The notes: generated from the letters alone by a model not told the origin. 64,000 nt of DNA from an uncultured Holophagaceae bacterium (GCA_903863195.1 CAIPAY010000116.1:8326-72325), one strand, 5' to 3'. Shown: positions 12,001 to 48,338, counted from the first letter of the stretch. A program made the numbers and translations.

Positions 12001-12090
12001 CGGCCCACCCTCTACGCCACGGCGAAGCGGCTGGGTGTGGACCTGGTGGCGGAGCGGATGGGGGGGCAGGCCCCGCCTTCAGCTGGGTAG
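9052..12090 (+). CDS. Sigma-54-dependent transcriptional activator (bacterial enhancer-binding protein) with a ~640-aa uncharacterised N-terminal region
   Basis: The C-terminal part has Walker A ILGPTGCGKELAA, the GAFTGA loop (GHLKGAFTGA), the RVLQEHEIRRVG segment and a Fis-type HTH (AAESLGLARPTLYATAKRLGV). The frame is open from 8650 but overlaps aroA there. The first start after that is GTG 9052, forming GTGCTGA with the aroA stop. The start is uncertain. Confidence 0.8.
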   Translation: MLRAPWLGDWKAPWGLDRGRRWGDAPWALAAISQAWLLGGREGRWPRLEQEARRSTGPQVTQAPARFEPRPDPLWIASLRHGSPGVAATRRGAREDEFLTWAWEALLDGDGTPWMAAGSVLLDLPRRLRWVAVLGAVDEQGDLQLPPFLDLLPPAYRTLPPGWWEALLRQQDPEGRLLPEGSLPPELPWPALQRHAQPLLLASLPEELRPYQACPWLRELPGGAWMLAPDVRAWTRAPGASPLGLGPLVPRNLGAGAPPEPALAEVLNLRLPAESPVGWSAALAADLREAGHRPAPPPAAGHPTWDRLRVRWGGLPPAPEPGYPAWEAYAHPCADPFHWMAKGQLALRAFEPEAALRAFTLAHAHFGRLGAAGWAERAASNAAVTALQWADLPAHGRWVHQRGPLPQPWQAMETAQLAEVQLEPRVALERIRALVEAHPDFTEGWGLLASHGADQEDWDLVREGLDRVGDHPYTQFLTAALGPLTESPPPEADPETQLSWEAHRLFRGCGDPEAFWSTWRTCPTQIMRLELGLQVLERVPTQRRAEALLALQAIADRAASGRHQRRLADLWPPVSDTAPPAPLALLQAWLAQRQAPTWITWEDAGQLQTLGTGAAPPEGALGRLARDGALAPFGHGAWLWRGHPLIWEGCPVGAVLLAQALDSTVAPTLEPLLLAPWLALLRAQRPAEAGVEGGLLLTDGSEPLAAVLRELDRVAASELPVLILGPTGCGKELAARELHRRSGRSGPLVAVNCSAFAEGLLESELFGHLKGAFTGADRDRRGAIEAARGGTLFLDEVADLSPRLQSLLLRVLQEHEIRRVGSDHSVKVDVRFAAATHRALEDLATAGTFRRDLLFRLQGAVLRLPPLAARRHEFPFLVPRLAARAAEATKRPIPALAPGLPEALARLPWPGNVRELLHALERAVLRCEEGALRPRHFPELETPTLQTRTWEEATRAFQRRLLQDTLQACSHRAAEAAESLGLARPTLYATAKRLGVDLVAERMGGQAPPSAG

Positions 12091-13386: not shown

Positions 13387-13425
13387 GGAGCCTCCGGCAT
13401 GGGGGGTTTCCGGGTCAGTGAGGAC

Positions 13426-16128: not shown

Positions 16129-16307
16129 GGGACCTCGTCGAAGGAAGCCTACCCGCGGAGAGTAGCTACATCCGTACCGGAAAACTTCGTTGATCTGTAG
16201 CAGGAATGATCACTCGGTTTCTTCGCCCCACGGCGCTGCCAGACCATCCCGCCAGCTGGCCAACAAGCCGGGATCTAACCCTGACCGGAGGGATTCGACC
16301 GTCCTCT

Positions 16308-31010: not shown

Positions 31011-32654
31011 CTAGGCGGGTGAGCTGAACCCGAGCAGGTAGGCATGATCTTCGGCAAAGGCCCTTCCAAGTCGGCCATTGGTGCCACCCAGGGGTTCATA
31101 TGCCTCCCGCCAGGCCTTCTGGTGGGCTTCGTTGACGGACTGGGGGCGCCCCTCCAGGCGGTCCAGCATCTCCAGGACGACCGCGTTGATCTCCTCGGCG
31201 GTGTTGTCCACCAGGGTGATGCCCTGGGTGTCCAGGTAGGCGGAGGCCGAGATGCAGCCAATGGGAGAGCTGAGCAGCTCCTGGAAAGTGAGGAAGCGCT
31301 GTTCCCGCTCGGAGTAGTACCGCTTAAATATGCAGAGGTCCTGCTCGTAGCCCAGGGGGGCCAGGGGCGGGGCCCAGTTGGTGAGGACACAGGGCAGGCC
31401 GAAGGTGGGGGGGACCTGCACCGGCCCCGACTGAGTGCCCAGGAAGAACCGGCAGGTGGCCCACAGGTAGACATCCATCCAATCACTCTTGTGGGGGCCC
31501 AGGGCGTAGTCGAGGACCCGGGGCGAGGGCGGGAGCGGCGTCATGGCCGCATCGCCCATACGGATCACCCACCCCCCCCTCTTTAGGATGGTGTCGATGG
31601 CGAGCTGATAGCTCTGGGTCGAGGCATTGCGCACCTTGTCCCAGGCATCCTCCCGGATGTGGAGACCCACGAACCAGGCACCTTCCGGGACGCCCAGCTG
31701 CCGGAGGCACGCCTGACCCCTGGCGTGCTGGGCCTCGGAAAGGGAGAGCAGGGGCGGCCGCTTTTCCGCGTCCCACTGCCGAAGCACCTGGACAAAGTCC
31801 CCCCAGTTGTAGGAGATCCGCTGGCCGCCCTGGCGATCCATGATGCCGTGGGTGTGGTCTTCCAGCTCGTCCACGAGCGGGGCCAGCCGCAGGTAGGTGG
31901 CGGGATCGGTGATCATGTCGGGCAGGTGGGGGCGCCAGCAGTCCAGGTAGGCGGCGTTTCCCACGGGCTTGAGGCCGGTGACCAGCACGGGCCGTGCGGC
32001 GGCGCGCAGGCCGAGGCGGTCCATCTTGAGATACTGATCCAGCAGGCCGATGTGCCCGACGTGGGTGGAGAAATCTCGCAGGAAGCGGAGGCCCAGCCGG
32101 TCCAACTGACGCTCCCGTGCCCGGGCATTGTTCCGGTCAACCCGCGCCTGGAAGATCCGGTCCGCGAAGGCCACCCGGCCACAGAACAGCATGGCGGCGG
32201 TGATGCGACGGTGCGTGAAGGCCGCCTCGGGACAGAGGGGGAAGAGGTGCTCCCAGAGGGCCATGGCCTCCTCGAAGCGGTGCTCCCCGATGAGGGCCTC
32301 CGCGATCTTTACCAGGACATCCGGGTAGTCCAAGGGAAAGATGGTGTACTTCTGCCAACGGTCCACCGCGGCTTCCATCTGCGTGGGATCCCGCAAGTCC
32401 TCCCCCCACTCGGGGGTGAGCACCGAGGCCCGGAGCCAGAGCGCCAGGCCTTCTTCGGAGCGGTTCAGCTTGAAATACAGCTCACCGAGCTCGATGAGCA
32501 CTTCCCCCCACTCGGGTTCCAACGCAAGGGCCCTCTGGAAGCTGGCCTGCGCGGGATCCCACTGCTCCGCCTGCTTAAAGGCATAGCCCTGGAGGGCCTC
32601 TTCGACGGCCGAGGGCTGGTGGGCTGATTCGTCGAGTCTCACCATGCGTGACAA
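31011..32654 (-). CDS. TPR-repeat protein with a C-terminal putative glycosyltransferase-like domain (resembles the TIGR04372-type family)
   Basis: The N-terminal ~170 aa are TPR-like (ALQGYAFKQAEQWDPAQASFQRALALEPEWGEVLIELGELYFKLNRSEEGL). The C-terminal ~370 aa has FVGLHIRE...GGWVIRMGD...FFLGTQSGP. I recall this pattern from an uncharacterised putative-GT family, and the assignment is unverified. Confidence 0.5.
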   Translation of the reverse strand: MSRMVRLDESAHQPSAVEEALQGYAFKQAEQWDPAQASFQRALALEPEWGEVLIELGELYFKLNRSEEGLALWLRASVLTPEWGEDLRDPTQMEAAVDRWQKYTIFPLDYPDVLVKIAEALIGEHRFEEAMALWEHLFPLCPEAAFTHRRITAAMLFCGRVAFADRIFQARVDRNNARARERQLDRLGLRFLRDFSTHVGHIGLLDQYLKMDRLGLRAAARPVLVTGLKPVGNAAYLDCWRPHLPDMITDPATYLRLAPLVDELEDHTHGIMDRQGGQRISYNWGDFVQVLRQWDAEKRPPLLSLSEAQHARGQACLRQLGVPEGAWFVGLHIREDAWDKVRNASTQSYQLAIDTILKRGGWVIRMGDAAMTPLPPSPRVLDYALGPHKSDWMDVYLWATCRFFLGTQSGPVQVPPTFGLPCVLTNWAPPLAPLGYEQDLCIFKRYYSEREQRFLTFQELLSSPIGCISASAYLDTQGITLVDNTAEEINAVVLEMLDRLEGRPQSVNEAHQKAWREAYEPLGGTNGRLGRAFAEDHAYLLGFSSPA

Positions 32655-34779: not shown

Positions 34780-35865
34780 ATGGGTGATATCCACTGGTGG
34801 AGAACCAAGTTCGGGGAAGAGGAGAAGGCCCTCATTGGCGAAGCCATCGACGGGGAGCACATCAGCCAGGGCACGGTGACCCGAGCCTTCGAAAAGGCCC
34901 TGGAGGCCTACCTCGGCGTGGACCATGTGGTGGCCACCACGAGCGGAAGCATGGCCATCCTCATGGCTCTCATGACCCTGGGGGTTGGTCCCGGGGATGA
35001 GGTCATCGTGCCCAACCGCACCTGGATTGCGACGGCTCATGCGCCCCTAGTGCTGGGCGCGAAGGTCCGGCTGGTGGACGTCCAGCGCGAGGTCCCCATC
35101 CTGGATGCGTCCCTGCTGGAAGCCGCCATCACGCCCCGGACCCGGGCCATCCTACCCGTCCACCTGAACGGGCGGTCCGCTGACATGGTCACGGTGAACC
35201 AGGTTGCCGCCAGGCATGGCATTCCCGTTGTCGAGGACGCGGCCCAAGCGCTGGGGTCCCGGAATGCCGCGGGGCTCCTGGGAACCCAGTCCTCCCTTGG
35301 CTGCTTCTCCCTGTCCGTCGCCAAGATCATCGCCACCGGTCAGGGTGGGTTTGTGGTGACTCGCGATACAGGGCTCTATCAGCGCCTGCTGGCGCTCCGC
35401 ACCCACGGGGTCACGGATGTCCTCCACGCCCAGTGGACGAGCCTGGGCTTTAACTTCCGTTTCAATGACATCCTGGCCTCCATCGGCCTGGCCCAGCTCC
35501 CGCGCCTGGAGGCCCGCATCCAGCACGTCCGAGCCATCTACCGGCGCTACGAACCGGCCCTTGAAGCCTTGCCCTTCCTCAGCCTCATCCCGGTGGATCT
35601 GGAGGCCGGCGCAGTCCCGATCTACATCGAAGTGCTCGTGCCCCGACGGGAGGAGTTGATCGCCCACCTGGCGACCCGGGGCATCCAGACCCGGCCCTTC
35701 TATCCCGACCTGGACAAGGCCGCTTATATGGAGAACCCAGGGACCTTTCCCCGTTCCGAGGTCTTCGGTTCTCAGGGCCTATTCCTGCCCTCGGGACCCG
35801 ATCAACCCCTGGAGTCCGTCGATCGGGTTATCGAGGCCCTCCGGGCCTTCGGAGCCCTGTCATGA
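34780..35865 (+). CDS. DegT/DnrJ/EryC1/StrS-family PLP sugar aminotransferase (copy 3)
   Basis: TTSGSMAILMALMTLGVGPGDEVIVPNRTWIATA...; Lys context FSLSVAKIIATGQGG. GGAGGG lies 6 nt upstream of the ATG. Confidence 0.85.
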   Translation: MGDIHWWRTKFGEEEKALIGEAIDGEHISQGTVTRAFEKALEAYLGVDHVVATTSGSMAILMALMTLGVGPGDEVIVPNRTWIATAHAPLVLGAKVRLVDVQREVPILDASLLEAAITPRTRAILPVHLNGRSADMVTVNQVAARHGIPVVEDAAQALGSRNAAGLLGTQSSLGCFSLSVAKIIATGQGGFVVTRDTGLYQRLLALRTHGVTDVLHAQWTSLGFNFRFNDILASIGLAQLPRLEARIQHVRAIYRRYEPALEALPFLSLIPVDLEAGAVPIYIEVLVPRREELIAHLATRGIQTRPFYPDLDKAAYMENPGTFPRSEVFGSQGLFLPSGPDQPLESVDRVIEALRAFGALS

Positions 35866-35931
35866 ATGGCATCCCACAGCTTCCCTCCTGGACGCTCGCC
35901 CGCCCCAGGTCCACCAACCGATGGAATTCCC

Positions 35932-36654
35932 ATGTCTGAGCGCCATGATCTGGTGGCCGTGCTGGGCTTCCATGATGGATCTGCTGGGCAGGTGGAAACC
36001 TGGTTCGAGGAGACGACGGGGCTGCGCATAGCCTGTTTCGTACTCGAGGATCCAGGCCCCTTCCTGGTTGATCCCGCAGAAGAGCCACGGCGGCGGGTCT
36101 CCCAACGCACCACCTTCCCCGCGGAGGGAACGTTCAAAGGTCGGCCTTTCATCGTGTCCCTGGCCTGGGCCGAGGAGCTGAAACGGCGGGGGATCCGGAA
36201 AGTGCTGCCCCTGACTCCCGACAACCAGACCAGGCTACGCCAGGTCGAGATCTGCCGCGAGGAGGGATTTGAGCTGGTCTCGGCCATCCACCCGTCGGTG
36301 GTCAGTCTGGCGGGAGCCACGGTCCAGCCTGGCGTCTGGATCAACGCAGGCTGCCTCATCGGGTATCAGGCCGAGGTAGAGCCCGGGGTCATCCTCAACA
36401 CGCGGGTCCAGATCGACCACCACAACGTGCTGAAACAGGGTGCCCAGGCGGATCCCGGTGTGGTCCTCGCCGGGAATGTCACGCTCTGGGAGGGCTGCCA
36501 CCTTCACACGGGCGTCATCGTGATCAACCGCATCCAGATCGGCCGGGGAGCCATTGTGGGGGCGGGGGCAGTGGTGACCCGAGATGTCCCAGCAGGGTGC
36601 ACCGTCGTGGGGGTACCCGCGAGGGTGATCAAACGAAATGGCATCCGGGTATGA
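35932..36654 (+). CDS. NeuD/PglD-family sugar N-acetyltransferase (left-handed beta-helix), copy 1
   Basis: From ATG 35932: MSERHDLVAVLGFHDGSAGQV... (N-terminal Rossmann-like). Hexapeptide repeats follow (INAGCLIGYQAEVEPGVILNTRVQIDHHNVL...VGAGAVVTRDVPAGCTVVGVPARVI). An alternative ATG lies at 35866. Confidence 0.75.
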   Translation: MSERHDLVAVLGFHDGSAGQVETWFEETTGLRIACFVLEDPGPFLVDPAEEPRRRVSQRTTFPAEGTFKGRPFIVSLAWAEELKRRGIRKVLPLTPDNQTRLRQVEICREEGFELVSAIHPSVVSLAGATVQPGVWINAGCLIGYQAEVEPGVILNTRVQIDHHNVLKQGAQADPGVVLAGNVTLWEGCHLHTGVIVINRIQIGRGAIVGAGAVVTRDVPAGCTVVGVPARVIKRNGIRV

Positions 36655-37741
36655 AACGGCAGAGAATCCGATCCTTCCAACACCAGGGCCTACAATGGGC
36701 TCCATGACCCGACAGGACGGTAAAGACAAGCCCCTCAGCGCGCGCCGGTTGCCCGAGTCAGACCTCCGGGAAGTGGCCGAGGCTCTCGGCCCTAACCTTG
36801 GCGGCCTGGGCGATGCCCGGATCTTGCTCTCCGGGGGCACCGGGTTTCTGGGGCGGTGGCTGCTGGAGAGCTGGATGCTCGCCCGCAAGGAAGAACGGCT
36901 ATTCGGGGAGCTGTTGGTCCTGACCCGGGAGCCCTTGCGCTGGGCGGGCCTGTTGGCCTGTCCCGGCCTCTCCTTTGTTGGGGGCGACCAGACCGACTTC
37001 GTATTTCCCAAGGGTGCCTTCGACCTGGTAATCCATGGGGCCTTCGAGCACGGAGACGCCCGCACGACCTTCTGGAACAACCTGCTGGGCTGCCGACGCA
37101 TGCTGGACTTTGCACGACAGGCGCACGCCTCCCGGTTCCTCCTGCTCAGTTCGGGGGCTGTCTACGGCAACCAGACCATGGACCGGGCCCCCGAGGCTTG
37201 GCCGGGCACCGTGGACCCCCTGGATCCACGCCAAGCCTATGGCTCCGCCAAGCGCGCCTCGGAGGCGATGGGGGCCGCCTTCCAGGCTGATGGCGGACCC
37301 GCCTTCACCTCGGCCCGGGGCTTTGCTTTCCTCGGCCCCGGGCTGCCCCTGGACAAGAACTACGCCATCGGGAACTTCATCCGCGATGCCCTCCAGGGCG
37401 GCCCCCTCCGGATCCAAGGCGACGGCACCCCTCGCCGTTCCTACCTTTATGCCTCCGACGCGGCAGCCTGGTTCTGGGCGCTGCTGGCCCGAGGAGAGGG
37501 CGCTGTGAATGTGGGCTCGCCCGAAGCCTTGAGCATCCTCCAGGTCGCCGAGAAGGTCCGGGACACATTGGCGCCCGGGGCGGCGATCCAGGTGGCGGGC
37601 AACCCTGTGCTAGGGGCCCCCCCCAGCCGCTATGTCCCCGACACGACCCGCGCCGAGGCCCTGGGCCTGCACCCCCTGGTCGGGCTGGAGGAGGGGCTCC
37701 GCCGCACAGCGGCCTGGTACACCACAGAGGAGGGCGCTTGA
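36638..37741 (+). CDS. NAD-dependent NDP-sugar epimerase/dehydratase (extended SDR)
   Basis: ILLSGGTGFLGRWLL, LSSGAVYG and YGSAK (YxxxK). The N-terminal ~40 aa are of uncertain reality, with alternative ATGs at 36695 and 36704. Confidence 0.7.
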   Translation: MASGYETAENPILPTPGPTMGSMTRQDGKDKPLSARRLPESDLREVAEALGPNLGGLGDARILLSGGTGFLGRWLLESWMLARKEERLFGELLVLTREPLRWAGLLACPGLSFVGGDQTDFVFPKGAFDLVIHGAFEHGDARTTFWNNLLGCRRMLDFARQAHASRFLLLSSGAVYGNQTMDRAPEAWPGTVDPLDPRQAYGSAKRASEAMGAAFQADGGPAFTSARGFAFLGPGLPLDKNYAIGNFIRDALQGGPLRIQGDGTPRRSYLYASDAAAWFWALLARGEGAVNVGSPEALSILQVAEKVRDTLAPGAAIQVAGNPVLGAPPSRYVPDTTRAEALGLHPLVGLEEGLRRTAAWYTTEEGA

Positions 37742-39543
37742 GCCTGGTCAAGGTCTCGGACTATGTCACCCGGTTCCTGGTGGCCCACGGCATTAAGGAC
37801 ATCTTCCTGGTCTCCGGCGGCGGCATCATGCACCTCCTCGACTCCGTGGGGCGCCAGGAGGGTCTCCGCTACTGGTGCAACTACCATGAGCAGGCCTGCG
37901 CCATCGCGGCTGAAGCCTATGCCAAGGTCCGGCGGTCTCCCGGGGCCATCCTCATCACCGTGGGTCCCGGTGGCGTGAACGCGCTCTCCGGGGTCGTCGC
38001 CGCCTGGATGGACTCGGTGCCGACCCTGGTCCTTTCTGGACAGGTACGCCGGGACCTCATCACCGACAGCGGCCTGATCCGCCAGAAGGGCCCCCAGGAA
38101 GGGGATGTGGTGGGGCTGGCCAAGCACGTCACCAAGCATGCAGTGACTGTCTTGGACCCCCTGGAGATCCGGCGCGAGTTGGAGCGCGCCTGGCACCTGG
38201 CCACAACCGGACGGCCCGGCCCCGTCTGGATCGACCTACCTCTGGATGTACAGGGGGCCATGGTCGAGGATGAGCAGCTGGCGGGCTTCGAGGTGCCGCC
38301 CGGACCCGCGGGCGAGGCTGAGCGCCTCCTCGACGAGGCCCGGCGAGTGGTAGCGGAGCTCCGCCAAGCCCGCCGCCCCCTGATCGTCGCCGGCAACGGC
38401 CTGCACTGGGCCCATGCGGAGCAGCGGTTCCTCACCCTGCTGGACCGCTTCCCAGTCCCCGTAGTCATGCCCTGCACTGCAAAAGACATCCTCTGGGAGG
38501 ACCACCCCTGTCATCAGGGCATCTTCGGGACTGCCGGACAGAGGCGAGCAAATATTGCCCTGCAGAGCGCCGACCTCCTGCTCTCCCTGGGCTCGGGTCT
38601 CTCCCTCTCCAAGACCGGTTACAACGTGGCGGGTTTCGCAGCCAAGGCACGGAAGGTCTTCATCGACATCGACCCAGGCCAGCTGCACCACCAGATCATC
38701 CGACCAGAAGTGGGCATCCAGGCCGATCTCGGCCCCTTCCTGGAGGCCCTGGACCTGGCCCTGGACGAGGTGATGCCAGACCTGGACGCGGCCTGGCTGG
38801 AGGCCTGCGCCGACTGGCGCAACCGCTACCCTCCTGTCGAGGCCGAGCATCGAGTGCCCGGGTCGGCCGTGAACACCTACGTCTTCGTGGATGAGCTCTC
38901 GGAGCGCCTCGGCCCCGACGAGGTGGTGGTGTCCGGGAACGGCATGGACGTGGTGTCCTACTACCAGGCCTTCCGGGTGAAACAGGGCCAGCGCGGCATC
39001 TTCAGCGGCAACTGGGGAGCCATGGGCTGGGACCTCCCGGAGGCCGTGGGCGCCGCCGTGGCGACCCCGGGGCGGCGCGTGGTCCTGATCGCAGGCGATG
39101 GCAGCTTCCAGCTGAATGTGCAGGAGCTCCTGACCATCGGCCACCATCGGCTGCCCATCTGCATCTTCCTCTTCAACAACGAGGGCTACTCCAGCATCCG
39201 GTCCACCCAGAATGCCTTCTTCGAAGGCCACTTCGTGGGCGCGGAGCGGAACAGCGGGGTGGCGAATCCGGATTTTCACCACCTGGCGCAGGCCTATGGC
39301 CTTGCCTATGCCCGCATCGACACCCCGGAGGAGTTGGGCCTGCGCTTGGATCAGGTGCTGGCCGGTCCCCTGCCGGTGCTCTGCGAGGTGAGGGTCGATC
39401 CGAACCAGGCGATCAGCCCCAAGGCCAGCGCCTTCAAACGGGAGGATGGCACCCTGGAGAGCCGGCCCCTGGAGGACATGGCACCCTTCCTGCCCAGGGA
39501 AGAGGTCTGGGCGAACATGCACCGGTTCGACGGAACCCCTTGA
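37738..39543 (+). CDS. Thiamine-diphosphate-dependent enzyme of the acetolactate-synthase/YerE type
   Basis: IFLVSGGGIMHLLD...YHEQACAIAAEAYAK (N-terminal Pyr domain) and IAGDGSFQLNVQELLT...NNEGYSSI (the GDG-x24-NN TPP motif). The TTG start at 37738 is preceded by GAGGAGG (5-nt spacer) and overlaps the upstream stop (TTGA). Confidence 0.8.
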   Translation: MSLVKVSDYVTRFLVAHGIKDIFLVSGGGIMHLLDSVGRQEGLRYWCNYHEQACAIAAEAYAKVRRSPGAILITVGPGGVNALSGVVAAWMDSVPTLVLSGQVRRDLITDSGLIRQKGPQEGDVVGLAKHVTKHAVTVLDPLEIRRELERAWHLATTGRPGPVWIDLPLDVQGAMVEDEQLAGFEVPPGPAGEAERLLDEARRVVAELRQARRPLIVAGNGLHWAHAEQRFLTLLDRFPVPVVMPCTAKDILWEDHPCHQGIFGTAGQRRANIALQSADLLLSLGSGLSLSKTGYNVAGFAAKARKVFIDIDPGQLHHQIIRPEVGIQADLGPFLEALDLALDEVMPDLDAAWLEACADWRNRYPPVEAEHRVPGSAVNTYVFVDELSERLGPDEVVVSGNGMDVVSYYQAFRVKQGQRGIFSGNWGAMGWDLPEAVGAAVATPGRRVVLIAGDGSFQLNVQELLTIGHHRLPICIFLFNNEGYSSIRSTQNAFFEGHFVGAERNSGVANPDFHHLAQAYGLAYARIDTPEELGLRLDQVLAGPLPVLCEVRVDPNQAISPKASAFKREDGTLESRPLEDMAPFLPREEVWANMHRFDGTP

Positions 39544-39551
39544 GGAGCAGC

Positions 39552-40607
39552 ATGACCAGGGACACGGTGAACATCGGCGGCAGGATGATCGGAGCGGGGC
39601 GGCCCTGCTTCGTCATCGCCGAGGCCGGAGTGAACCATGGTGGTGACCTCGAGCAGGCCCTCCGCCTGGTGGATGCCGCTGCTGACGCTGGCGCCGACGC
39701 CGTGAAGTTCCAGACCTTCCGGGCGAAGGACCTGGTAACCCCCGAGGCACCCAAGGCCAACTACCAGGAGGCCCGCTGCCCCGGTTCCCGCAGCCAGCTG
39801 GACCTGCTGAAGGCGCTTGAGCTGAGCGAAGCCTCCCACCGCGCCCTGATGGCGCACTGCCGAGACCGGGGCATCCTCTTCCTCTCAACGCCCTTCGAGG
39901 CGGGCAGCGCTGACCTGCTGGAATCGCTCGGGCTGCCGGCTTTCAAGATTCCCAGCGGGGAGCTCACCAACCTGCCCTTCCTGGCCCACCTTGCCCGCAA
40001 GGGGCGGCCCGTGATCCTCAGCACTGGCATGGCCCGCCTGGGTGAGATTGAGCAGGCCATGACCGTCTTCGAGGCCGCTGGACTCGAGGAGGTGGTACTC
40101 CTGCACTGTGTCTCTAGCTATCCGACTGCGTCGGCGGACGCCAACCTGCGGGCCATGGCCACCCTGGCCCAGGTCTTCCAGCGACCGGTGGGCTACTCGG
40201 ACCACACGGAGGGGCTTGAGGTCTCTCTGGCCGCCGTGGCGCTGGGAGCCTGCGTGCTTGAGAAGCACCTGACTCTGGACCGCAGCCTGCCCGGACCGGA
40301 CCAGCAGGTCAGCCTGGAGCCCGGCGAGCTGAAGGCCCTGGTACGGGGGGTCCGGATCGTGACCGCGGCCCTGGGTCATGGCAGGAAGGTGCCTGCGCCC
40401 TGTGAGCTGAACACGGCCCAGGTGGCGAGGAAGAGCCTGGTCGCAGCCATGAGCCTCCCCCGGGGGACGGTGCTGCAGGCGCATCACCTGGTCGCGAAGC
40501 GGCCTGGCACGGGGCTGCCCCCACTGCAGCTGGCCGAGGTCCTGGGCCGGACCCTGGGCCGGGACCTCGCCAAGGATGCCCTCCTGGCCTGGGAGGACTT
40601 CGCATGA
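39552..40607 (+). CDS. neuB: Nonulosonic acid synthase (NeuB/LegI/PseI family)
   Basis: CFVIAEAGVNHGGDLEQALRLVDAAADAGADAVKFQTF..., with a C-terminal SAF-like domain. GAGGAG lies 4 nt upstream of ATG 39552; the track start is TTG 39540. Confidence 0.85.
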   Translation: MTRDTVNIGGRMIGAGRPCFVIAEAGVNHGGDLEQALRLVDAAADAGADAVKFQTFRAKDLVTPEAPKANYQEARCPGSRSQLDLLKALELSEASHRALMAHCRDRGILFLSTPFEAGSADLLESLGLPAFKIPSGELTNLPFLAHLARKGRPVILSTGMARLGEIEQAMTVFEAAGLEEVVLLHCVSSYPTASADANLRAMATLAQVFQRPVGYSDHTEGLEVSLAAVALGACVLEKHLTLDRSLPGPDQQVSLEPGELKALVRGVRIVTAALGHGRKVPAPCELNTAQVARKSLVAAMSLPRGTVLQAHHLVAKRPGTGLPPLQLAEVLGRTLGRDLAKDALLAWEDFA

Positions 40608-41773
40608 GAACCCTGGGCGTGGTGACAGGCGGGCGGGCGGACTTCGGGATCTACCGGCCCCTGCTCCAGGCAATCCTCGCCGACCCCTCCCTCCGGCTGC
40701 ATCTCTACGTCACAGGCATGCACCTCTCGCCGGAGTTCGGGTGCACCGTGCGCGACATCGAGGCCGAGGGCTTCCCCATTGGCGACCGGGTGGAGATGCT
40801 CCTGGCCTCGGACAGCCCGGAAGGCATCGCCAAGGCCATCGGCCTGGGCACCCTGGGGTTCGCGCAGGCCTTCGGCCGGACCCTCCCGGATGTCCTGGTC
40901 CTCCTCGGGGACCGCTTCGAGATGCTCGCGGCCGCCAGTGCCGCCCTGCCCTTCAACCTGCCGGTGGCCCACATCCACGGCGGCGAGGTGACCGAAGGCG
41001 CCATCGACGAGTGCATCCGCCATACCCTCACCAAGTTGAGTCACCTGCACTTCGCCAGCACCGAAGGCCACGCCCACCGGATCCGTCAGCTGGGCGAGGA
41101 AGCGAGTCGGGTCCATACCTGCGGGGCCCTCTCCCTCGACAACCTTAAGGACCTGACACTGTTGGACCGCGAAACCTTGGAGCGGCGCTTCGGCCTTGAC
41201 CTCTCCGAAGCGCCGCTGCTGGTCACCTTCCACCCGGTCACCCGCGAATGGACCCAAATGCCGAGGCAGGTGGAGGAGCTGCTGGCGGCCCTGGACGCCT
41301 CGGGGCTTCCCCTGCTCTTCACCCTGCCCAACGCGGATACCCAGGGCCGCCTACTCATCAGCCGCTTCCGGACCTTCTGTGAGGGGCGGCCTCGCACCTG
41401 GATGGTGGATAACCTGGGGAGTCAGGCCTACTTCAGCCTGATGCGGCTCGCTTCCGCGATGGTGGGGAACAGCAGCAGTGGGCTCCTGGAGGCGCCCAGC
41501 TTCGGCCTCCCGGTGGTGAATGTGGGCACCCGCCAGCAGGGGAGGACCCGGGGATCCAATGTCCTGGATACCGGGACGAACCGGCAGGGGATTCTCGCCG
41601 CGATCGCAAGGGCCACCGCACCTGCCTTCCGAGCCTCTCTGCAGAACACGCCCAATCCCTACCAGCCGGTGGGACGCGCGGCGGAGGTGATCGTCCAGGT
41701 GCTCCGCGACACCCCCCTGGACGGCCTGTGCTTCAAGCCCTTCGTTGACCTTGGGCAGGAAGGCTTGCCATGA
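40604..41773 (+). CDS. neuC: Hydrolysing NDP-HexNAc 2-epimerase (NeuC/LegG family)
   Basis: VVTGGRADFGIYRPLL...VAHIHGGEVTEGAIDE...; ATGA overlap with the neuB stop. Confidence 0.85.
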   Translation: MRTLGVVTGGRADFGIYRPLLQAILADPSLRLHLYVTGMHLSPEFGCTVRDIEAEGFPIGDRVEMLLASDSPEGIAKAIGLGTLGFAQAFGRTLPDVLVLLGDRFEMLAAASAALPFNLPVAHIHGGEVTEGAIDECIRHTLTKLSHLHFASTEGHAHRIRQLGEEASRVHTCGALSLDNLKDLTLLDRETLERRFGLDLSEAPLLVTFHPVTREWTQMPRQVEELLAALDASGLPLLFTLPNADTQGRLLISRFRTFCEGRPRTWMVDNLGSQAYFSLMRLASAMVGNSSSGLLEAPSFGLPVVNVGTRQQGRTRGSNVLDTGTNRQGILAAIARATAPAFRASLQNTPNPYQPVGRAAEVIVQVLRDTPLDGLCFKPFVDLGQEGLP

Positions 41774-42414
41774 GCCCGCGCGTGGTCGGTTTCGGCGCAG
41801 GTGGCCACTGCAGGGTCCTCCTGGACATCCTGCTCCTGGACCGGGACCCTGCGGACCTGGTCCTGCTGGATCCTGACCCGAAGGTCCATGGGCAAAACCT
41901 GTATGGGGTACCAATCCTGGGCGGGGATGACTGCCTCCAGGCCGTTAAAGACCTGGGAGCCAACCACTTTTTCATTGGGGCGGGTAGCACGGGGAGCGTG
42001 GCGCTCCGACGGCACCTGTTCCAATTTGGACAGGCCGCTGGCCTCCAACCCCTGGAGGTCGTCCATCCCTCGGCCCTGTTGTCCAGCCGCTCGGAGCGGG
42101 GCCCTGGTCTCACGGCCATGGCCCGGGTTGTGGTCAACGCCGGCGCCTCCCTGGGAGCCAACGTGGTCCTGAATACCGCTGTAATCGTTGAACATGACTG
42201 CCGAATATCCGATCACGCCTTTCTCGCGCCCGGGGCTCTGGTGATGGGTGGGGTCTCGATCGGCCAGGGGGCCTTCCTGGGGGCCGGATGCGTGATCCGG
42301 CAAGGCCTTCGGATTGGCGAGGGGGCTCTGGTGGCCGCGGGGGCCGTTGTGGTCCGGGATGTGCTTGCAGGAGATCAGGTGGGAGGCATCCCTGCCCACC
42401 CCCTCTCCCGCTAG
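41770..42414 (+). CDS. NeuD/PglD/LegH-family sugar N-acetyltransferase, copy 2
   Basis: VVGFGAGGHCRVLLDIL... followed by hexapeptide repeats (VVNAGASLGANVVLNTAVIVEHDCRISDHAFLAPGALVMGGVSIGQGAFLGAG). ATGA overlap with neuC. Confidence 0.8.
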   Translation: MSPRVVGFGAGGHCRVLLDILLLDRDPADLVLLDPDPKVHGQNLYGVPILGGDDCLQAVKDLGANHFFIGAGSTGSVALRRHLFQFGQAAGLQPLEVVHPSALLSSRSERGPGLTAMARVVVNAGASLGANVVLNTAVIVEHDCRISDHAFLAPGALVMGGVSIGQGAFLGAGCVIRQGLRIGEGALVAAGAVVVRDVLAGDQVGGIPAHPLSR

Positions 42415-42422
42415 GACCCTTT

Positions 42423-43511
42423 GTGAACCAGCGCTTCCTCGAGTCATTGCATATTGGACTGGAGGCCCCCCTGCGGGACCTGGTCCGCTGCATCGACCGC
42501 AGCGGGCGCATGAGCATTGCCCTGCTCACGGACGAGCAGGGGAAGCTGATCAACGTCATCACGGACGGAGACGTGCGGCGGGGGCTCCTGGCAGGACTGA
42601 CCCTCGCCGCCTCCGCCCGGGAGCTCTTGCCCATCAAGCTCGGCGTCCCCAACTCGGTGGCGGTCACGGCCCCGATCGGCACCACGCCCATGGCCTTGAT
42701 GTCGCTGATGCAAGAGCGTCACGTCCGCCAGATCCCGCTTCTCGATGAGCTGGGCCGGGTGGCCGACATCGTCACGCTGGCCGAGCTCCTGCCCGAGTCC
42801 CCTCAGGCCCTCAGCGCCGTGATCATGGCCGGCGGCTTCGGCACGCGGCTACGTCCGATGACCGATCACATGCCCAAGCCCATGCTTCCCGTCGGCGGTC
42901 GCCCGGTCATGGAGTGGATCGTGGACCAGCTCCGGGCGGCGGGCATCCATCAGGTCAAGGTCTCCACCCACTACAAGCCAGAGAAGATCATGGATCACTT
43001 CGGCGACGGCAGCGCCTTCGGCGTGGAGATGGAATACGTGAACGAGGACCGCCCCCTGGGCACCGGAGGGGCGCTGGGTCTCATGGATCAGCCGGATGCC
43101 CCCTTCCTGGTGATCAACGGGGATGTCCTGACCCAGATCGATTTCCAGAAAATGCTGGACTTCCACCAGGAGCATCAGGCCGAGATGACGGTGGCCGTGA
43201 ATATGCATCAGCTGGAGATTCCGTTCGGCGTGGTGGAGTGCTCAGGACCCCGCATCCAGACCCTGCGGGAGAAGCCCTGCCTGCCGGTGTTGATCAATGC
43301 GGGCATCTACCTGCTCCAGCCCAGCGTCCACAAGCTGCTCCCCCAGAAGGGGGAGCGCTTCAACATGACGGACCTGATCCAGTGGCTCCTGGATGCCGGA
43401 CGCACCGTCGTGGGCTTCCCCATTCGCGAGTATTGGACGGACATCGGCCAGCACGCCTCCTACAATCAGGCGCAGAAGGACCACGCCCAAGGGGCCCCCC
43501 ATGCTGATTGA
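42423..43511 (+). CDS. CBS-domain-containing sugar-1-phosphate nucleotidyltransferase (PtmE/LgaF type)
   Basis: From GTG 42423 the N-terminus has CBS-pair-like segments (LINVITDGDVRRGLL; LGRVADIVTLAELL). Then AVIMAGGFGTRLRPMTDHMPKPMLPVGGRPVMEWIV...LGTGGAL. The track ORF (42288) overlaps the previous gene. Confidence 0.8.
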   Translation: MNQRFLESLHIGLEAPLRDLVRCIDRSGRMSIALLTDEQGKLINVITDGDVRRGLLAGLTLAASARELLPIKLGVPNSVAVTAPIGTTPMALMSLMQERHVRQIPLLDELGRVADIVTLAELLPESPQALSAVIMAGGFGTRLRPMTDHMPKPMLPVGGRPVMEWIVDQLRAAGIHQVKVSTHYKPEKIMDHFGDGSAFGVEMEYVNEDRPLGTGGALGLMDQPDAPFLVINGDVLTQIDFQKMLDFHQEHQAEMTVAVNMHQLEIPFGVVECSGPRIQTLREKPCLPVLINAGIYLLQPSVHKLLPQKGERFNMTDLIQWLLDAGRTVVGFPIREYWTDIGQHASYNQAQKDHAQGAPHAD

Positions 43512-44703
43512 CAGGTCCCCCGGGGACCTGCCGGAGATTGCGATTCCCCTGTCCGTGCCCGAGGTGGGGGGGCGCGAGTGGGAGTATGTGAAGGCGTGCC
43601 TGGACACGGGCTGGATCTCCAGCGTCGGGGCCTTTGTGGACCGCTTCGAGGCGGCCATGGCCCAGGCTGTGGGCGTGTCTCATGCGGTGGCGACCGTGAA
43701 CGGCACCGCCGCCTTGCACATCGCGCTGATGGTCGCGGGGGTGGAAGCCGGGGACGAAGTGCTGGTCCCGGATCTGACCTTCATCGCTCCCGCCAACGCT
43801 GTCCGCTACCTAGGCGCGTGGCCGGTCTTCATCGATGTGGATCCGCTCCACGGGCAGATGGACCCCGCCCAGGTGGCCGACTTCCTCGAGCGGGGCTGCG
43901 AGCGGACGCCAGACGGTCTGCGGAATCGTTCCACCGGTCGGTGGGTCCGTGCCCTGCTGCCCGTGGATGTCCTGGGACACCCCGCCGACCTGGAGCCCCT
44001 GATGGCCCTGGCCGAGGCCCATGGCCTCGCGCTGGTGGAAGATGCCACGGAGAGCCTGGGGGCCGAGTATCGTGGGCAGCCCGTCGGCTCGCGCGCCGAC
44101 ATCGCCTGCATCAGCTTTAATGGCAACAAGATCATCTCCACGGGGGGCGGGGGCATGCTCCTCACACGACGGGAGGACTGGGCCGCCCGCGCCCGCTACC
44201 TGACGACCCAGGCCAAAGATGATGCCATCGAGTTCATCCACGGCGCCGTGGGCTACAACTATCGGCTCGGCAACGTGGCCGCAGCCATCGGCGTCGCGCA
44301 GCTGGAGCGCCTCCCTGAGTTCGTCACCCGGAAACGGGCCATTGCCGACCGCTACCGCATCGCCCTGCAGGGATGCCCCGGGCTCGAGCCCCTGCCCGAG
44401 GCGACCTGGGCCCGGAGCACCTCCTGGCTCTTCACGATGAAGGTGGATGCCGAGGCCTTCGGCATGGACAGCCGTGGACTCCTGGACTTCCTCAGGAAGC
44501 GCGCCATCCAGACCCGCCCGCTCTGGCAGCCTATGCACCTGAGCCCAGCCCATCAAGGCTGCGCCTCCTGGCACATCGAAGTAGCCACCCACCTGAATCG
44601 CGTCTGCCTCAGCCTACCTTGCTCGGTGGGACTCAAGGAGTCGGACCAGACCCGGGTCATCCAGGCTCTGCACGAGGCTCACAGGATCGGCACGTTGAAG
44701 TAG
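43501..44703 (+). CDS. DegT-family PLP sugar aminotransferase (copy 4; LegC/PglE-like)
   Basis: From ATG 43501: MLIDRSPGDLPEIAIPLSVPEVGGREWEYVKACLDTGWISS...TVNGTAALHIALMVAGVEAGDEVLVPDLTFIAPA...; Lys context ISFNGNKIISTGGGG. Confidence 0.85.
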   Translation: MLIDRSPGDLPEIAIPLSVPEVGGREWEYVKACLDTGWISSVGAFVDRFEAAMAQAVGVSHAVATVNGTAALHIALMVAGVEAGDEVLVPDLTFIAPANAVRYLGAWPVFIDVDPLHGQMDPAQVADFLERGCERTPDGLRNRSTGRWVRALLPVDVLGHPADLEPLMALAEAHGLALVEDATESLGAEYRGQPVGSRADIACISFNGNKIISTGGGGMLLTRREDWAARARYLTTQAKDDAIEFIHGAVGYNYRLGNVAAAIGVAQLERLPEFVTRKRAIADRYRIALQGCPGLEPLPEATWARSTSWLFTMKVDAEAFGMDSRGLLDFLRKRAIQTRPLWQPMHLSPAHQGCASWHIEVATHLNRVCLSLPCSVGLKESDQTRVIQALHEAHRIGTLK

Positions 44704-45365
44704 GCCTGGGCGTTGGCGGCTCCCTTCTTGGGGACGATCGCCAGCGAACCGTCGGCCCCGGTGTAGACGAGGGTGTCAGAGGGAACCTCGCGGAAGTAGA
44801 CGGTGGTATCAACCCCAATGGAAACTCGGTCCCCAATGGGCTTGTCGCCGATGACCTTCGCCCCCGCCGCTAGGTAGAGGCCCTTCCCGAGGACCGGTCC
44901 CCGGTTGCCCTGGGCATCCGGATGGGTGTTCACCGTGACGTTCTGGAAGACCACCAAAAAGTCCGCGTAGGATGCGTTTCCCAGGATGGACCCGATAGGA
45001 TGGCCAAAGAGAAAGATGTCGGGCAGGCCTGCGTTGTAGGTGAAGAAGAGGCCATTCAGCGCCTTGTTCAGCAGGATCAGCTTGTCGCAGAGGGGGCGGT
45101 TCTGGGACCGGACCCAGAGGCTGTTGGCGAGGTAGTAGAGGAACTGGCTGTACTGGTCCGAGTGGAGGTGGGAGAAGTGCGCCTCGCCCCCCCCCGAATA
45201 GGCCGAGTGGGAGATGTGGCGGAAACACCACTCCGTGCGCTGCAGGGCCTGATCCAGAGCCGCATCCACGTCTCCGCCCTCGAAGACGTAACGGTCAGGG
45301 AAGAAATTGGCCAGCTGCGCTGCAATAAATGCCTTTAGCTCGGGGACTTTCAGGGACAGATGCAT
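44679..45365 (-). CDS. Serine-acetyltransferase-like (hexapeptide) O-acetyltransferase
   Basis: The helical N-terminal domain (DQYSQFLYYLANSLW...) followed by hexapeptide repeats (GKGLYLAAGAKVIGDKPIGDRVSIGVDT) resembles the CysE-like acetyltransferases of glycan loci. Its 3' end overlaps the convergent aminotransferase gene by 25 nt. Confidence 0.65.
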   Translation of the reverse strand: MHLSLKVPELKAFIAAQLANFFPDRYVFEGGDVDAALDQALQRTEWCFRHISHSAYSGGGEAHFSHLHSDQYSQFLYYLANSLWVRSQNRPLCDKLILLNKALNGLFFTYNAGLPDIFLFGHPIGSILGNASYADFLVVFQNVTVNTHPDAQGNRGPVLGKGLYLAAGAKVIGDKPIGDRVSIGVDTTVYFREVPSDTLVYTGADGSLAIVPKKGAANAQAYFNVPIL

Positions 45366-45461: not shown

Positions 45462-46439
45462 TCAGACGGTGTAGTCGCCGGGTCGAAAGTGGTGGGCGTG
45501 GTCCCGCATCCAGGCAATGGTGCGCTCCAGACCTTCCTCAAGGCTCAGAGCCGGGGTCCAGCCCAGCAGCTCCCGGGCCAGGGTGTTGTCGGACACTAGA
45601 CGGTCCACCTCGCTCGGCCCTGGGCGCAAGCGTCGCTCGTCGCTGGTCACTTGGAGGTCCTTGCCCAGCAGCTTGCCGATGAGCGCGGCCAGGTCGCCGA
45701 TGCTGATCTCCCGTCCTGTTCCAAGGTGGACCGTGCGGCCTTCGATGCCCGGCACCGCTCCCGCCTGCAGGTACGCCCCCACCGTATCGGCCACAAAAGT
45801 CAGATCTCGCGTGGGGGTGAGGTTGCCCAGGTGCACCGCGCCTCCAGCGAGCCCCTGGCTGATGATCGTGGGGATGACGGCCCGGGCCGACTGGCGGGGG
45901 CCGAAGGTGTTGAAGGGGCGCAGGGTCACGACGGGCAGCCCGAAGGCGGCGTGGCAGGCTTCGGCCATCTTGTCCGCCCCAATCTTGCTGGCGGAGTAGG
46001 GCGACTGACCCTGGAGGGGGTGGTCCTCCCGGATGGGCACTTGGCGGGCGGAGCCGTAGACCTCACTGGTCGAGGTGTGGACAACACGCTTCACCCCAGC
46101 TTCGACGGCAGCTTGGAAGAGGTTAAGGGAGCCCTCGATGTTGGTCCGAACGTAGCTCTGCGGTGCCCGATAGGAATAGGGGATGGCGATGAGGGCCCCC
46201 AGGTGGAAGACGACCTCCACGTCCTGCAGGGCCGCCCGCACGCTGTCCCGGTCACAGAGGTCCCCGGCCACCACGTCCATCCCTGAGCGCAGGGGCGAGT
46301 GGTCCAGCCAGCCTCCGGTGCCGAGCGCGTTGTAGTGGACGAAGGCCCGCACCTCGGCACCCTCCTGGAGGAGCCGCTCAGCCAGATGGCTCCCGATGAA
46401 GCCCCCTGCGCCCGTCACCAGCACCTTGGTTCCCTGCAT
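45462..46439 (-). CDS. NDP-HexNAc 4,6-dehydratase-like extended SDR (LegB/LgaA-like)
   Basis: From ATG 46439: MQGTKVLVTGAGGFIGSHLAERLL...FVHYNALGTGGWLD...TSTSEVYG...YSASK. The track ORF (46667) is an upstream extension into the neighbouring gene. Confidence 0.7.
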   Translation of the reverse strand: MQGTKVLVTGAGGFIGSHLAERLLQEGAEVRAFVHYNALGTGGWLDHSPLRSGMDVVAGDLCDRDSVRAALQDVEVVFHLGALIAIPYSYRAPQSYVRTNIEGSLNLFQAAVEAGVKRVVHTSTSEVYGSARQVPIREDHPLQGQSPYSASKIGADKMAEACHAAFGLPVVTLRPFNTFGPRQSARAVIPTIISQGLAGGAVHLGNLTPTRDLTFVADTVGAYLQAGAVPGIEGRTVHLGTGREISIGDLAALIGKLLGKDLQVTSDERRLRPGPSEVDRLVSDNTLARELLGWTPALSLEEGLERTIAWMRDHAHHFRPGDYTV

Positions 46440-46473
46440 GTCCCTGCCCCCTTCTCGCACGCAACGCCGAATC

Positions 46474-47268
46474 TCACCAGGCTGTGAAGCCGCCATCCAC
46501 CACCAGGTTCTGTCCGGTGATGTAGGCGGAAGCATCCGAGGCCAGGAAGGCCGCGGCGCCCTTGAAGTCCTCTTCGGTCCCCATGCGCCCGAGCGGGGTC
46601 CGGGCCACATAGCGGCCCACGAAGGCCTCAGGCTGGCCCCGCCAGAGCCCGCCGGGGCTGATGGCATTCACACGGATCTCGGGAGCCAGCACCGTGGACA
46701 GCCAGCGGTTGAGCTGGATCAGACCACCCTTGCTGGCCCCATAGGCCGCCGGATTGCCCATGGCCGTGTCCTCGTAGAGCCGCATGTCCGGCCCGACCAC
46801 GCCATAGAGCGAGCTGATGTGAATGATCGAGCCATGCCCCGAGGCGCGCAGCGCGGGCACACAGAGCTGAGTGAGGAGGAAGGGGGCCGTAAGGTTTACC
46901 TCCAAAGCCCTCCGCCAGGTGTCCACCCGCTGCTCCAGGAAGGGCGTGATCCAGCCAGGGAGCCCGGCGGTGCCTGCGAAAGCCGCGCAATGGATGAGGA
47001 TGTCGAGGCGGCCAAATGCCTCCAGCACCCGGTCGGGGATGGCCCGCACCTCGGCCTCCTGCTCGAGGTCGATGGACAAAGGGAGGACCTCCACGCCGTG
47101 GGCCTCGGCCAGAGCCCGGGCCGCGGCCTGGGGTTCCCGATCCAGGATCACGAGTCGCGCTCCCTGCTCCGCGAGGGCCTCTGCCATGGCCTGCCCGATG
47201 TGCCCGGCGCCTCCGGTGACGAGGGCCACGCGACCCTGGAGGTTCAGCAGGTCCTTGAGTGGCCTCAT
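46474..47268 (-). CDS. Short-chain dehydrogenase/reductase (classical SDR; PtmA-like position)
   Basis: RVALVTGGAGHIGQAMA (TGxxxGxG), ISSLYG and YGASKGG (YxxxK). Confidence 0.8.
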   Translation of the reverse strand: MRPLKDLLNLQGRVALVTGGAGHIGQAMAEALAEQGARLVILDREPQAAARALAEAHGVEVLPLSIDLEQEAEVRAIPDRVLEAFGRLDILIHCAAFAGTAGLPGWITPFLEQRVDTWRRALEVNLTAPFLLTQLCVPALRASGHGSIIHISSLYGVVGPDMRLYEDTAMGNPAAYGASKGGLIQLNRWLSTVLAPEIRVNAISPGGLWRGQPEAFVGRYVARTPLGRMGTEEDFKGAAAFLASDASAYITGQNLVVDGGFTAW

Positions 47269-48242
47269 GGCACCCCCAGCTTGATGGTCGTTCCCTGCGA
47301 GGCCTTCACGGCCAGCGCGATCTCCAGGGCCCGCAGCCCGTCTTCACCGGTCACCCGGGGCGCAGCGCCCGTCTCGATGCAGGTCAGGAAGTGGCTGAGC
47401 TCCTCCAAGTAGATGCGGTTTCGATCAGCGGGTGCGGCCTCGGGTCGCAGCAGCTCCGTCCAGCCACCCTGGGTGAAGAGCCGCAAGCCGCGGCGGAGGC
47501 CATCCCACTCCAGGGTGCCCTCGGTGCCGACGACCCGGCAGGTGCGGGTCGGCGCTCGCTGCAGCAGGTCCAGGTGCACACTTCCGATAGCACCGCTCTC
47601 GAAGGTGAGCAGCACCTCGGCAAGGTCTTCGACAGCCAGCCCCAGGTCGCCCCGGGTGCCCGTGACGGCACAGACACTCGCCACCTCGCCCAGGAGCCAC
47701 CGCAGATAGTCGAACTCGTGGCTCAGCTCTAGGACCACGCCTCCGCCGAGCTCGGGTCGGGCGGTAACCCCTCGGAGGTAGTCGCTGCCGGGCCGCCAGT
47801 CCGGCAGGTATTGGCCCACCTCGGCCCGCACGCTCAGCACCCGGCCGATGCGGGGCAGGGCTTCCCGCAGCGCCTGGAGGGAGGGCGCGAAGCGCAGGTT
47901 GTAGCCCGTCATCAGGACGAGGGACCGGTTGTGGCAGAGCTCAATGAGGCGGGAGAGACCCTCCCTCTGGTCCGAGATCGGCTTCTCGATCAGGAGGTGC
48001 ACCCCCGCCTCGGCCAGGACCAGCGCCTCTGCCACATGAAAGGGCGAGGGCGAGGCCAGGATCGCGAACTGGGGCCGGGCTTCCAGAGCGGCCTCCAACG
48101 TGCTCACCACCTTGACCGCAGGGACCGGGGCATCGGCACCCGTGCGGCGCAAGGCCCAGAGGTCCGCATCTGGAAGCAGGGTGCGCAGGTTGGCCAGGTG
48201 GCGCCGGCCGATGCTTCCCAGGCCAACAACGAGGCCTCTCAT
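47265..48242 (-). CDS. Gfo/Idh/MocA-family oxidoreductase
   Basis: MRGLVVGLGSIGRRHL... (N-terminal Rossmann) and LIEKPI (the EKP motif). A 4-nt overlap joins it to the downstream SDR gene. Confidence 0.8.
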   Translation of the reverse strand: MRGLVVGLGSIGRRHLANLRTLLPDADLWALRRTGADAPVPAVKVVSTLEAALEARPQFAILASPSPFHVAEALVLAEAGVHLLIEKPISDQREGLSRLIELCHNRSLVLMTGYNLRFAPSLQALREALPRIGRVLSVRAEVGQYLPDWRPGSDYLRGVTARPELGGGVVLELSHEFDYLRWLLGEVASVCAVTGTRGDLGLAVEDLAEVLLTFESGAIGSVHLDLLQRAPTRTCRVVGTEGTLEWDGLRRGLRLFTQGGWTELLRPEAAPADRNRIYLEELSHFLTCIETGAAPRVTGEDGLRALEIALAVKASQGTTIKLGVP

Positions 48243-48338
48243 GGCACAGCACACTCGGGCCCGACGTTCATGATGGCTTCCTGGGTCATTCGTCTCGCCT
48301 CATTCAAGCACAAAGGGCGCGGCGGGGGCTTTCCGACC

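Follow-up and report, generated by a model that had tools for sequence, protein, structure and literature searches.

A YerE-like thiamine diphosphate-dependent carboligase gene in a legionaminic acid-type operon of a Holophagaceae bacterium, and nonulosonic acids as possible donors of a sugar branch

A stretch of 64,000 nucleotides (nt) from an uncultured Holophagaceae bacterium (GCA_903863195.1, CAIPAY010000116.1:8326-72325; this whole stretch is referred to as the window) was analyzed for the role of a gene that encodes a thiamine diphosphate (ThDP)-dependent enzyme and lies inside a nonulosonic acid operon, directly upstream of neuB (table 1). The evidence points to a pathway in which the nonulosonic acid may be the donor of a long sugar branch. 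The open reading frame (ORF) of 601 amino acids (aa) that had been reported in a preliminary description of the window is real and uses the plus strand. It is open from position 37291 and offers no in-frame alternative ATG, GTG or TTG near its TTG start. The reported junctions were also found as described: the TTG (37738-37740) overlaps the TGA (37739-37741) of the upstream short-chain dehydrogenase/reductase (SDR) gene, the ThDP gene's own TGA (39541-39543) ends 8 nt before the neuB ATG at 39552, and a GAGGAGG ribosome-binding site is present about 5-11 nt 5' of the start.

Three Pfam domains (TPP_enzyme_N, TPP_enzyme_M and TPP_enzyme_C) make up the protein, and the previously noted motifs HEQACAIAAEAY and GDGSFQLNVQELL...NNEGY were seen in the alignment to its best match in the Protein Data Bank (PDB). 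The catalytic glutamate E51 in the HEQ motif and the ThDP motif G453-D454-G455...N480-N481 (pattern GDG-X(24-27)-NN) are invariant in the window protein and 15 aligned relatives. A C-terminal tail of ~40 residues (SPK...DGT.ES.PLED..P..PRE) extends past the residues that match acetohydroxyacid synthase (AHAS) chains; the tail residues invariant in the 15 relatives include many charged ones, among them K562. R568, D570, E574 and R576 are further conserved residues of the tail.

The operon order claimed earlier was confirmed as DegT, NeuD-like, SDR, ThDP enzyme, NeuB, NeuC, NeuD, CBS-domain nucleotidyltransferase and DegT (LegC). NeuB, NeuC, NeuD and LegC pass the NCBIfam cut-offs of their families, whereas the PtmE-like and LegB-like assignments were made from Pfam domains and position. 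Every step up to free legionaminic acid (Leg) has a candidate gene in the window. The SDR that precedes the ThDP gene belongs to a separate family, with 43-53% identity to the SDRs that precede the ThDP gene at other loci and at most 29% identity to the other SDRs compared. Its cofactor and catalytic motifs (GxxGxxG and YxxxK) are intact, and an SDR with a 4-nt overlap likewise precedes the ThDP gene in three related loci (L001-L003). Position and motifs suggest that it is a putative YerF-like, NAD(P)H-dependent reductase partner of the ThDP enzyme.

Table 1. Features of the nonulosonic acid operon and adjacent genes in the window.
Feature	Position	Strand	Basis
DegT aminotransferase (361 aa) and NeuD-like acyltransferase (262 aa), additional pair at the head of the operon	34780..36654	+	Below curated cut-offs
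Extended SDR (367 aa) coupled to the ThDP gene, putative YerF-like reductase for the branch carbonyl	36638..37741	+	Pfam Epimerase; GGTGFLG and YGSAK
Shine-Dalgarno-like GAGGAGG ahead of the TTG start	37727..37733	+	Read from sequence
JanthE/YerE-like ThDP-dependent carboligase (601 aa)	37738..39543	+	Pfam, NCBIfam, PDB match, tree clade A
NeuB/LegI nonulosonate synthase, proposed supplier of the alpha-keto acid donor	39552..40607	+	TIGR03569, 444 bits (cut-off 399.65)
NeuC/LegG hydrolysing 2-epimerase	40604..41773	+	TIGR03568, 429 bits
NeuD/LegH N-acetyltransferase	41770..42414	+	TIGR03570, 182 bits (cut-off 160.8)
CBS-domain sugar-1-phosphate nucleotidyltransferase (PtmE-like); true start probably downstream of 42414	42288..43511	+	Pfam CBS and NTP_transferase
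LegC-family aminotransferase (start uncertain)	43393..44703	+	TIGR04181, 437 bits (cut-off 420)
LegB-like 4,6-dehydratase SDR	45462..46667	-	Pfam GDP_Man_Dehyd and Epimerase
adh_short and Gfo/Idh/MocA pair (PtmA/PtmF position)	46474..48254	-	Pfam

The names of the top NCBIfam models, which are acetolactate synthases, and the source annotations, which agree with them, would make the protein an ordinary acetolactate/acetohydroxyacid synthase for branched-chain amino acids. The best of these models (TIGR00118) gives 345.6 bits against a cut-off of 538.35, and the remaining acetolactate-synthase models also score the protein far under their cut-offs. Contig C18 of the same genome carries a genuine ilvB (707 bits) with ilvN and ilvC next in order, and a glyoxylate-carboligase-like (gcl) gene with a tartronate-semialdehyde reductase gene is present on contig C229. 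Neither ilvN nor ilvC adjoins the ThDP gene, whose neighbors are the SDR gene and neuB. A maximum-likelihood tree groups the window protein with 30 relatives and places a long branch, supported at 100/100, between this group and IlvB and Gcl; no clustering with genuine branched-chain acetolactate synthases was seen. The protein shares with IlvB the superfamily, the domain order, the catalytic glutamate in HEQ and the GDG...NN motif, but differs in its sub-cut-off score, the lack of a small subunit, the extra conserved C-terminal tail and the gene context. Based on the scores, the ilvBNC operon on C18 and the separating branch, the amino acid enzyme reading was rejected and retains practically no probability. 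The same three lines of evidence support the earlier claim that the protein belongs to a YerE-type, sugar-modifying ThDP family.

The best PDB match of the window protein is JanthE from Janthinobacterium sp. HH01 (8rph/8rpi/8rpj, 383 bits over residues 4-589), followed at lower scores by Escherichia coli AHAS I (244 bits) and PpYerE, the "YerE" of Pseudomonas protegens (5ahk, 234 bits). PpYerE was placed by this bit score alone, and by that measure its likeness is no higher than that of AHAS I. JanthE is a 'YerE-like' ThDP lyase that couples 2-oxo acids to non-activated ketones (PMC12247030), and its conversion was 6% with the methyl, 37% with the ethyl and 56% with the propyl donor, so that longer 2-oxo acids beat pyruvate (PMC12247030, PMC12188165). 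Its physiological substrates are not established (PMC12247030, PMC12188165) and no function can therefore be transferred from it to the window protein. The two proteins share a three-domain fold and the ~40-residue C-terminal tail, in which K562 of the window protein aligns with a JanthE lysine that is probably, by alignment numbering, the K567 flagged in an engineering study (PMC12188165). They differ in the ThDP motif, which is the canonical GDG in the window protein and CDG in JanthE (PMC12247030). JanthE is closer to a sister clade described below (452 bits to a paralogue that the window's genome encodes on contig C133) than to the clade of the window protein. A homologue in a Janthinobacterium lividum metagenome-assembled genome (MAG; L067) was considered as a JanthE orthologue and dropped, with its 361 bits to 8rph making it no closer than the window protein. 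By family placement, the gene is assigned to the YerE-like sugar-branching group of ThDP-dependent carboligases, in a clade related to JanthE.

A unifying scheme has been published for acyl-branched sugars that covers YerE/YerF (yersiniose A), ErwE/ErwF (erwiniose) and MMAR_2332 (caryophyllose) (PMC9306805). The pathways combine CDP-4-keto-3,6-dideoxyglucose (CDP, cytidine diphosphate) with a ThDP enzyme of the YerE type, a reductase of the YerF type and an enzyme supplying a 2-oxo acid donor (PMC9306805). In the scheme, an aldolase makes the alpha-keto acid donor, and YerE uses pyruvate (PMC9306805). YerE, ErwE and MMAR_2332 were compared with the window by these published pathway parts.

Homologues with 50-65% identity to the window protein were found in the Acidobacteriota, Verrucomicrobiota, Chloroflexota, Planctomycetota, Burkholderiales, Myxococcota, Bdellovibrionota, Armatimonadota and Gemmatimonadota, and distant homologues (about 39-49% identity) in bacteria of the candidate phyla radiation (CPR) and in one Woesearchaeota MAG; the nearest named relative is a Holophaga MAG (78% identity). 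The loci of 83 relatives from >10 phyla were annotated by BLAST with reference proteins, and the 54 loci with at least 6 kb on both sides of the gene were regarded as well flanked. A NeuB synthase is encoded in 52 of these 54 loci, within 3 kb in 35 of them, and the co-occurrence with neuB in other genomes, which had been proposed as a check, is thus very strong. About half of the loci are of the Leg type (LegB, LegC, NeuC, NeuD and PtmE-like, often with adh_short and Gfo) and about half of the pseudaminic acid (Pse) type (PseB, PseC, PseG-like and PseI, sometimes fused to PseH). The two types of context are intermixed in the tree, and the sequences from Burkholderiales and Neisseriales (L047, L048, L057, L059, L063 and L067) fall in three separate places among unrelated phyla. 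The scattered tree positions and mixed contexts suggest that the module moves horizontally and swaps its donor pathway. One CPR locus lacks NeuB and contains an aldolase homologue instead.

An activating enzyme for the nonulosonic acid was searched for with a hidden Markov model built from ten NeuA/PseF-like proteins, which still picks up KdsB at 37-52 bits. No cytidine monophosphate (CMP)-nonulosonate synthetase (LegF/NeuA/PseF) was identified in the window with this model. The sole CTP_transf_3 gene is kdsB in the genome from which the window derives (93% complete) and in the complete or large genomes of Mesoterricola silvestris and a Trinickia species, and in two acidobacterial MAGs KdsB is the best CTP_transf_3 match with one further weak or partial match each. 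Among 50 genomes that carry the ThDP gene, 39 contain nothing beyond KdsB-level matches, including all cultured Burkholderiales and the Aquitalea searched, nine have a NeuA-like gene on another contig and two carry it in the locus itself. The window's phylum was sampled evenly with 401 genomes, in which a strong homologue of the ThDP gene defined a carrier. Eighteen genomes are carriers, and NeuB lies within about 3 kb of the homologue in 16 of them. A NeuA-type gene is present in 1 of these 16, where it accompanies a second, canonical NeuB located 450 kb away, and in 58 of 101 NeuB-positive non-carriers (Fisher p ~1e-4 against the carriers, with related genomes not being independent). An ORF of 228 aa between the LegC and LegB genes of the window (44679-45365, minus strand) was considered as a hidden CMP synthetase and rejected, as it has no Pfam match and weak NCBIfam matches to serine-O-acetyltransferase/EpsC-like models (46 bits); it may encode a hexapeptide O-acetyltransferase.

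The relatives' loci also contain genes for a nucleotide-linked acceptor. DdhA (glucose-1-phosphate cytidylyltransferase, TIGR02623 above cut-off), a CDP-glucose 4,6-dehydratase-like SDR and RfbH/DdhC were found in 39 of the 54 well-flanked loci, the RfbH/DdhC proteins scoring 620-720 bits with NF011936 (cut-off 423). RfbH is present nearby or elsewhere in 13 of 15 genomes whose fetched locus showed none, with several copies a few kb beyond the flank, and was not matched in any of 14 control genomes at E <= 1e-100. A conserved GtrB-like family 2 glycosyltransferase (GT2), often with GtrA, is encoded in 52 of the 83 loci (52 of the 68 with any hit). GtrB-like GT2/GtrA systems are the usual route for nucleoside diphosphate (NDP)-sugars and not for CMP-ulosonates. 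These genes bear on the possibility that the nonulosonic acid is the acceptor, such that a short donor would be added to its C2 ketone to give a derivative resembling an acetohydroxy acid. AHAS-type enzymes do join hydroxyethyl-ThDP to a 2-oxo acid at its ketone, and the missing synthetase would be accounted for because CMP activation is impossible once C2 is blocked. This reaction has no precedent among YerE-like enzymes, and it leaves the near-universal DdhA, DdhB and RfbH and the GtrB-like GT2 without a role, which makes the acceptor role very improbable.

A second system of this kind is present on contig C133 of the same genome (L120, 5939-19015), where DdhA, DdhB, RfbH, SDR and methyltransferase genes are met by a converging set for a tetratricopeptide repeat (TPR) protein, a ThDP paralogue, an FkbM methyltransferase, a divergent NeuB-like protein, a GT2 and GtrA. 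The paralogue (599 aa) is 43% identical to the window protein, and the divergent NeuB-like protein (458 aa) scores about 105 bits with NeuB/PseI models. In the tree, the paralogue belongs to a well-supported and widespread sister clade. In Singulisphaera acidiphila, which represents this clade, the order is DdhA, DdhB, RfbH, SDR, GT2, methyltransferase, ThDP enzyme and HpcH/HpaI aldolase, corresponding to the published architecture. In Acidocella aromatica it is GT2, NeuB-like, ThDP enzyme, DdhA, DdhB, RfbH and SDR, without nonulosonate precursor genes. The divergent NeuB-like type occurs in the phylum sample almost exclusively next to sister-clade ThDP genes. NeuB-family synthases and pyruvate aldolases both make 3-deoxy-2-oxo acids, and their interchange beside the sister-clade ThDP genes indicates that they occupy the same functional slot. 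In the S. acidiphila locus (L121, 11859-14470), the ThDP gene is followed by HpcH/HpaI aldolase, adh_short and dehydroquinate (DHQ)-synthase-like genes, which hints at another or a carbocyclic donor chemistry.

Two further alternatives were weighed against these data. The enzyme might use pyruvate or another short 2-oxo acid, as YerE itself does and as JanthE does weakly, to make a yersiniose-type short-branched 3,6-dideoxyhexose that shares a glycan with conventional legionaminic acid; glycan loci often collect the genes of several sugars, and the window is a large multi-sugar island. Such a donor leaves unexplained the lack of a CMP-nonulosonate synthetase in carrier loci and genomes, the presence of NeuB in nearly all well-flanked loci across so many phyla whether the chemistry is Leg or Pse, and the interchange of NeuB-like proteins and aldolases in the sister clade, and it is considered unlikely.

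The second alternative was put forward in the preliminary description, namely that the enzyme branches or acylates the nonulosonic pathway itself, for example by adding a C2 unit to the LegB-made NDP-2-acetamido-4-keto-2,6-dideoxyhexose, giving a shewanellose-like 4-C-branched N-acetylhexosamine, or by providing an unusual N-acyl group. The gene does lie inside the Leg operon, ddhABC is absent from the window, LegB makes the kind of 4-keto sugar that YerE-type enzymes accept, and the extra DegT and acyltransferase pair precedes the SDR. Moreover, 4-C-branched 2-acetamido-2,6-dideoxyhexoses are known (shewanellose). The orthologues, on the other hand, are accompanied by either guanosine diphosphate (GDP)-based Leg or uridine diphosphate (UDP)-based Pse sets, and it is the CDP-sugar genes that are common to both, so that an acceptor that is always CDP-linked explains the pattern more simply. 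This alternative, too, would leave the missing CMP synthetase and the NeuB/aldolase interchange unexplained. Together with the ddhA-ddhB-rfbH linkage, these points disfavor a C2 or acyl branch, whether carried by the nonulosonic acid or by its hexose precursor, and the idea was judged rather improbable.

The reading preferred here, for which the evidence is about evenly poised, is that a legionaminic-type acid acts as alpha-keto acid donor, is joined after decarboxylation to a CDP-4-keto sugar, and that the partner SDR reduces the product. The nonulosonic acid is probably a side-chain donor because the genomes lack the enzyme for its usual activation, and the linkage to ddhA-ddhB-rfbH, the missing CMP synthetase and the NeuB-like/aldolase interchange together suggest a donor of a long (C8) branch. 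We infer the identities of donor, acceptor and product as follows. The Leg-type genes (PtmE-like, LegB, LegC, LegH, LegG and LegI/NeuB) would produce a 5,7-diacylamido-3,5,7,9-tetradeoxy-non-2-ulosonic acid that is not CMP-activated. The free alpha-keto acid would bind ThDP and be decarboxylated, and the resulting C8 acyl-anion equivalent would attack the C4 ketone of a nucleotide-linked 4-keto sugar, most likely CDP-4-keto-3,6-dideoxy-D-glucose derived from the ddhA-ddhB-rfbH genes on contig C133. The coupled SDR would then reduce the branch carbonyl, as YerF does, to give a CDP-linked, diamino long-branched sugar of ~C14 for a surface glycan, which GT2/GtrA-type machinery, located on C133 in this genome, would pass on. 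The calculated formula of the predicted free sugar is C18H32N2O10 (about 436.5 Da); the mass would be about 438.5 Da once the SDR has reduced it, and about 823.6 Da for the CDP-sugar.

Several observations weigh against nonulosonate as the branch donor. We know of no sugar with a nonulosonate-derived branch, and nonulosonic acids are mostly cyclic hemiketals that offer a small open-chain fraction to ThDP. The ddhABC genes lie not in the window but on contig C133, beside the second ThDP paralogue, and the acceptor of the window enzyme is less certain for that reason. The CDP-sugar route, which also takes a CDP-6-deoxy-delta-3,4-glucoseen reductase (E3/DdhD), was judged from DdhA, DdhB and RfbH. 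The extra DegT and NeuD-like pair has no role in the proposed scheme. It duplicates the functions of LegC and LegH, and its NeuD-like member carries an N-terminal extension. Two of the 84 loci (83 relatives and the window) do contain a NeuA/PseF gene: a true PseF in an Endomicrobiales locus (L054, 2065-2769), and in a Terracidiphilus locus (L042, 11831-13657) a 608-aa ORF that directly follows the ThDP gene and contains a weak PseF-like domain. Finally, 43 of the 101 NeuB-positive non-carriers also lack a PseF-model match at threshold, so that the absence of NeuA is enriched in carriers and not exclusive to them; it is an enrichment and not a rule, since related genomes are not independent and the NeuA threshold may miss divergent forms.

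If nonulosonate is the branch donor, the recurrent nonulosonic acid clusters without an activating CMP synthetase would be accounted for, and the scheme of aldolase, ThDP enzyme and reductase would be widened to phosphoenolpyruvate (PEP)-dependent NeuB synthases. A new class of sugars would be expected on the surfaces of Paraburkholderia phymatum, Trinickia, Pandoraea, Aquitalea magnusonii and Mesoterricola silvestris. Extended to many phyla, the proposal is that Leg, Pse and neuraminic acid (Neu) pathways end in a ThDP-dependent decarboxylative graft onto CDP-4-keto-3,6-dideoxyglucose instead of a CMP-sugar, giving undescribed diamino long-branched surface sugars of ~C14, a second physiological role for NeuB as the donor synthase of a YerE-like enzyme, and natural substrates for the ThDP carboligase clade related to the biocatalyst JanthE. 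This generalization is held tentatively, at slightly less than an even chance. The annotation of such ThDP genes as acetolactate synthase is misleading, and surface "sialylation" should not be deduced from neuB alone.

The LegB-like SDR is 50-68% identical to the genes in the LegB position of Leg-type loci. On the minus strand after LegC, the order is the small acetyltransferase-like ORF, the LegB-like SDR, the adh_short and Gfo/Idh/MocA pair and then mutL. The adh_short and Gfo/Idh/MocA pair is a frequent companion of Leg sets and is found near the ThDP gene in seven other loci (L002, L014, L016, L026, L027, L031 and L032). A GT2 fused to TPR repeats, a 927-aa protein containing a family 4 glycosyltransferase (GT4) domain and a 547-aa TPR protein flank the sugar genes (12079-16209 and 31011-32654, both minus strand). 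TPR-glycosyltransferase fusions are typical of protein glycosylation (e.g., of flagellin), suggesting that the glycan target may be a protein.

No paper linking NeuB or nonulosonic acids with YerE-like enzymes was found in the literature that was searched, and the link may have been published before. What appears to be new is a branched-sugar pathway of the YerE type in which the donor would come from a new class of source and the product is predicted to be new as well. Among the closest known systems are a nonulosonic acid pathway and a branched-sugar scheme. In Campylobacter jejuni, CMP-legionaminic acid is made by PtmE, LegB, LegC, LegH, LegG, LegI and LegF. All parts of this pathway up to free legionaminic acid are matched in the window, LegF was not found there, and the ThDP enzyme and SDR are inserted directly before LegI. 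The YerE/ErwE/MMAR_2332 scheme has the same parts as the system described here: a ThDP carboligase, an NAD(P)H-dependent reductase, DdhA/DdhB/RfbH and an enzyme that makes a 3-deoxy-2-oxo acid donor. It differs in the donor enzyme, a pyruvate aldolase in the published scheme and here a PEP-dependent NeuB with a whole Leg (elsewhere Pse) precursor pathway, and in the branch, which would here be C8 and diamino.

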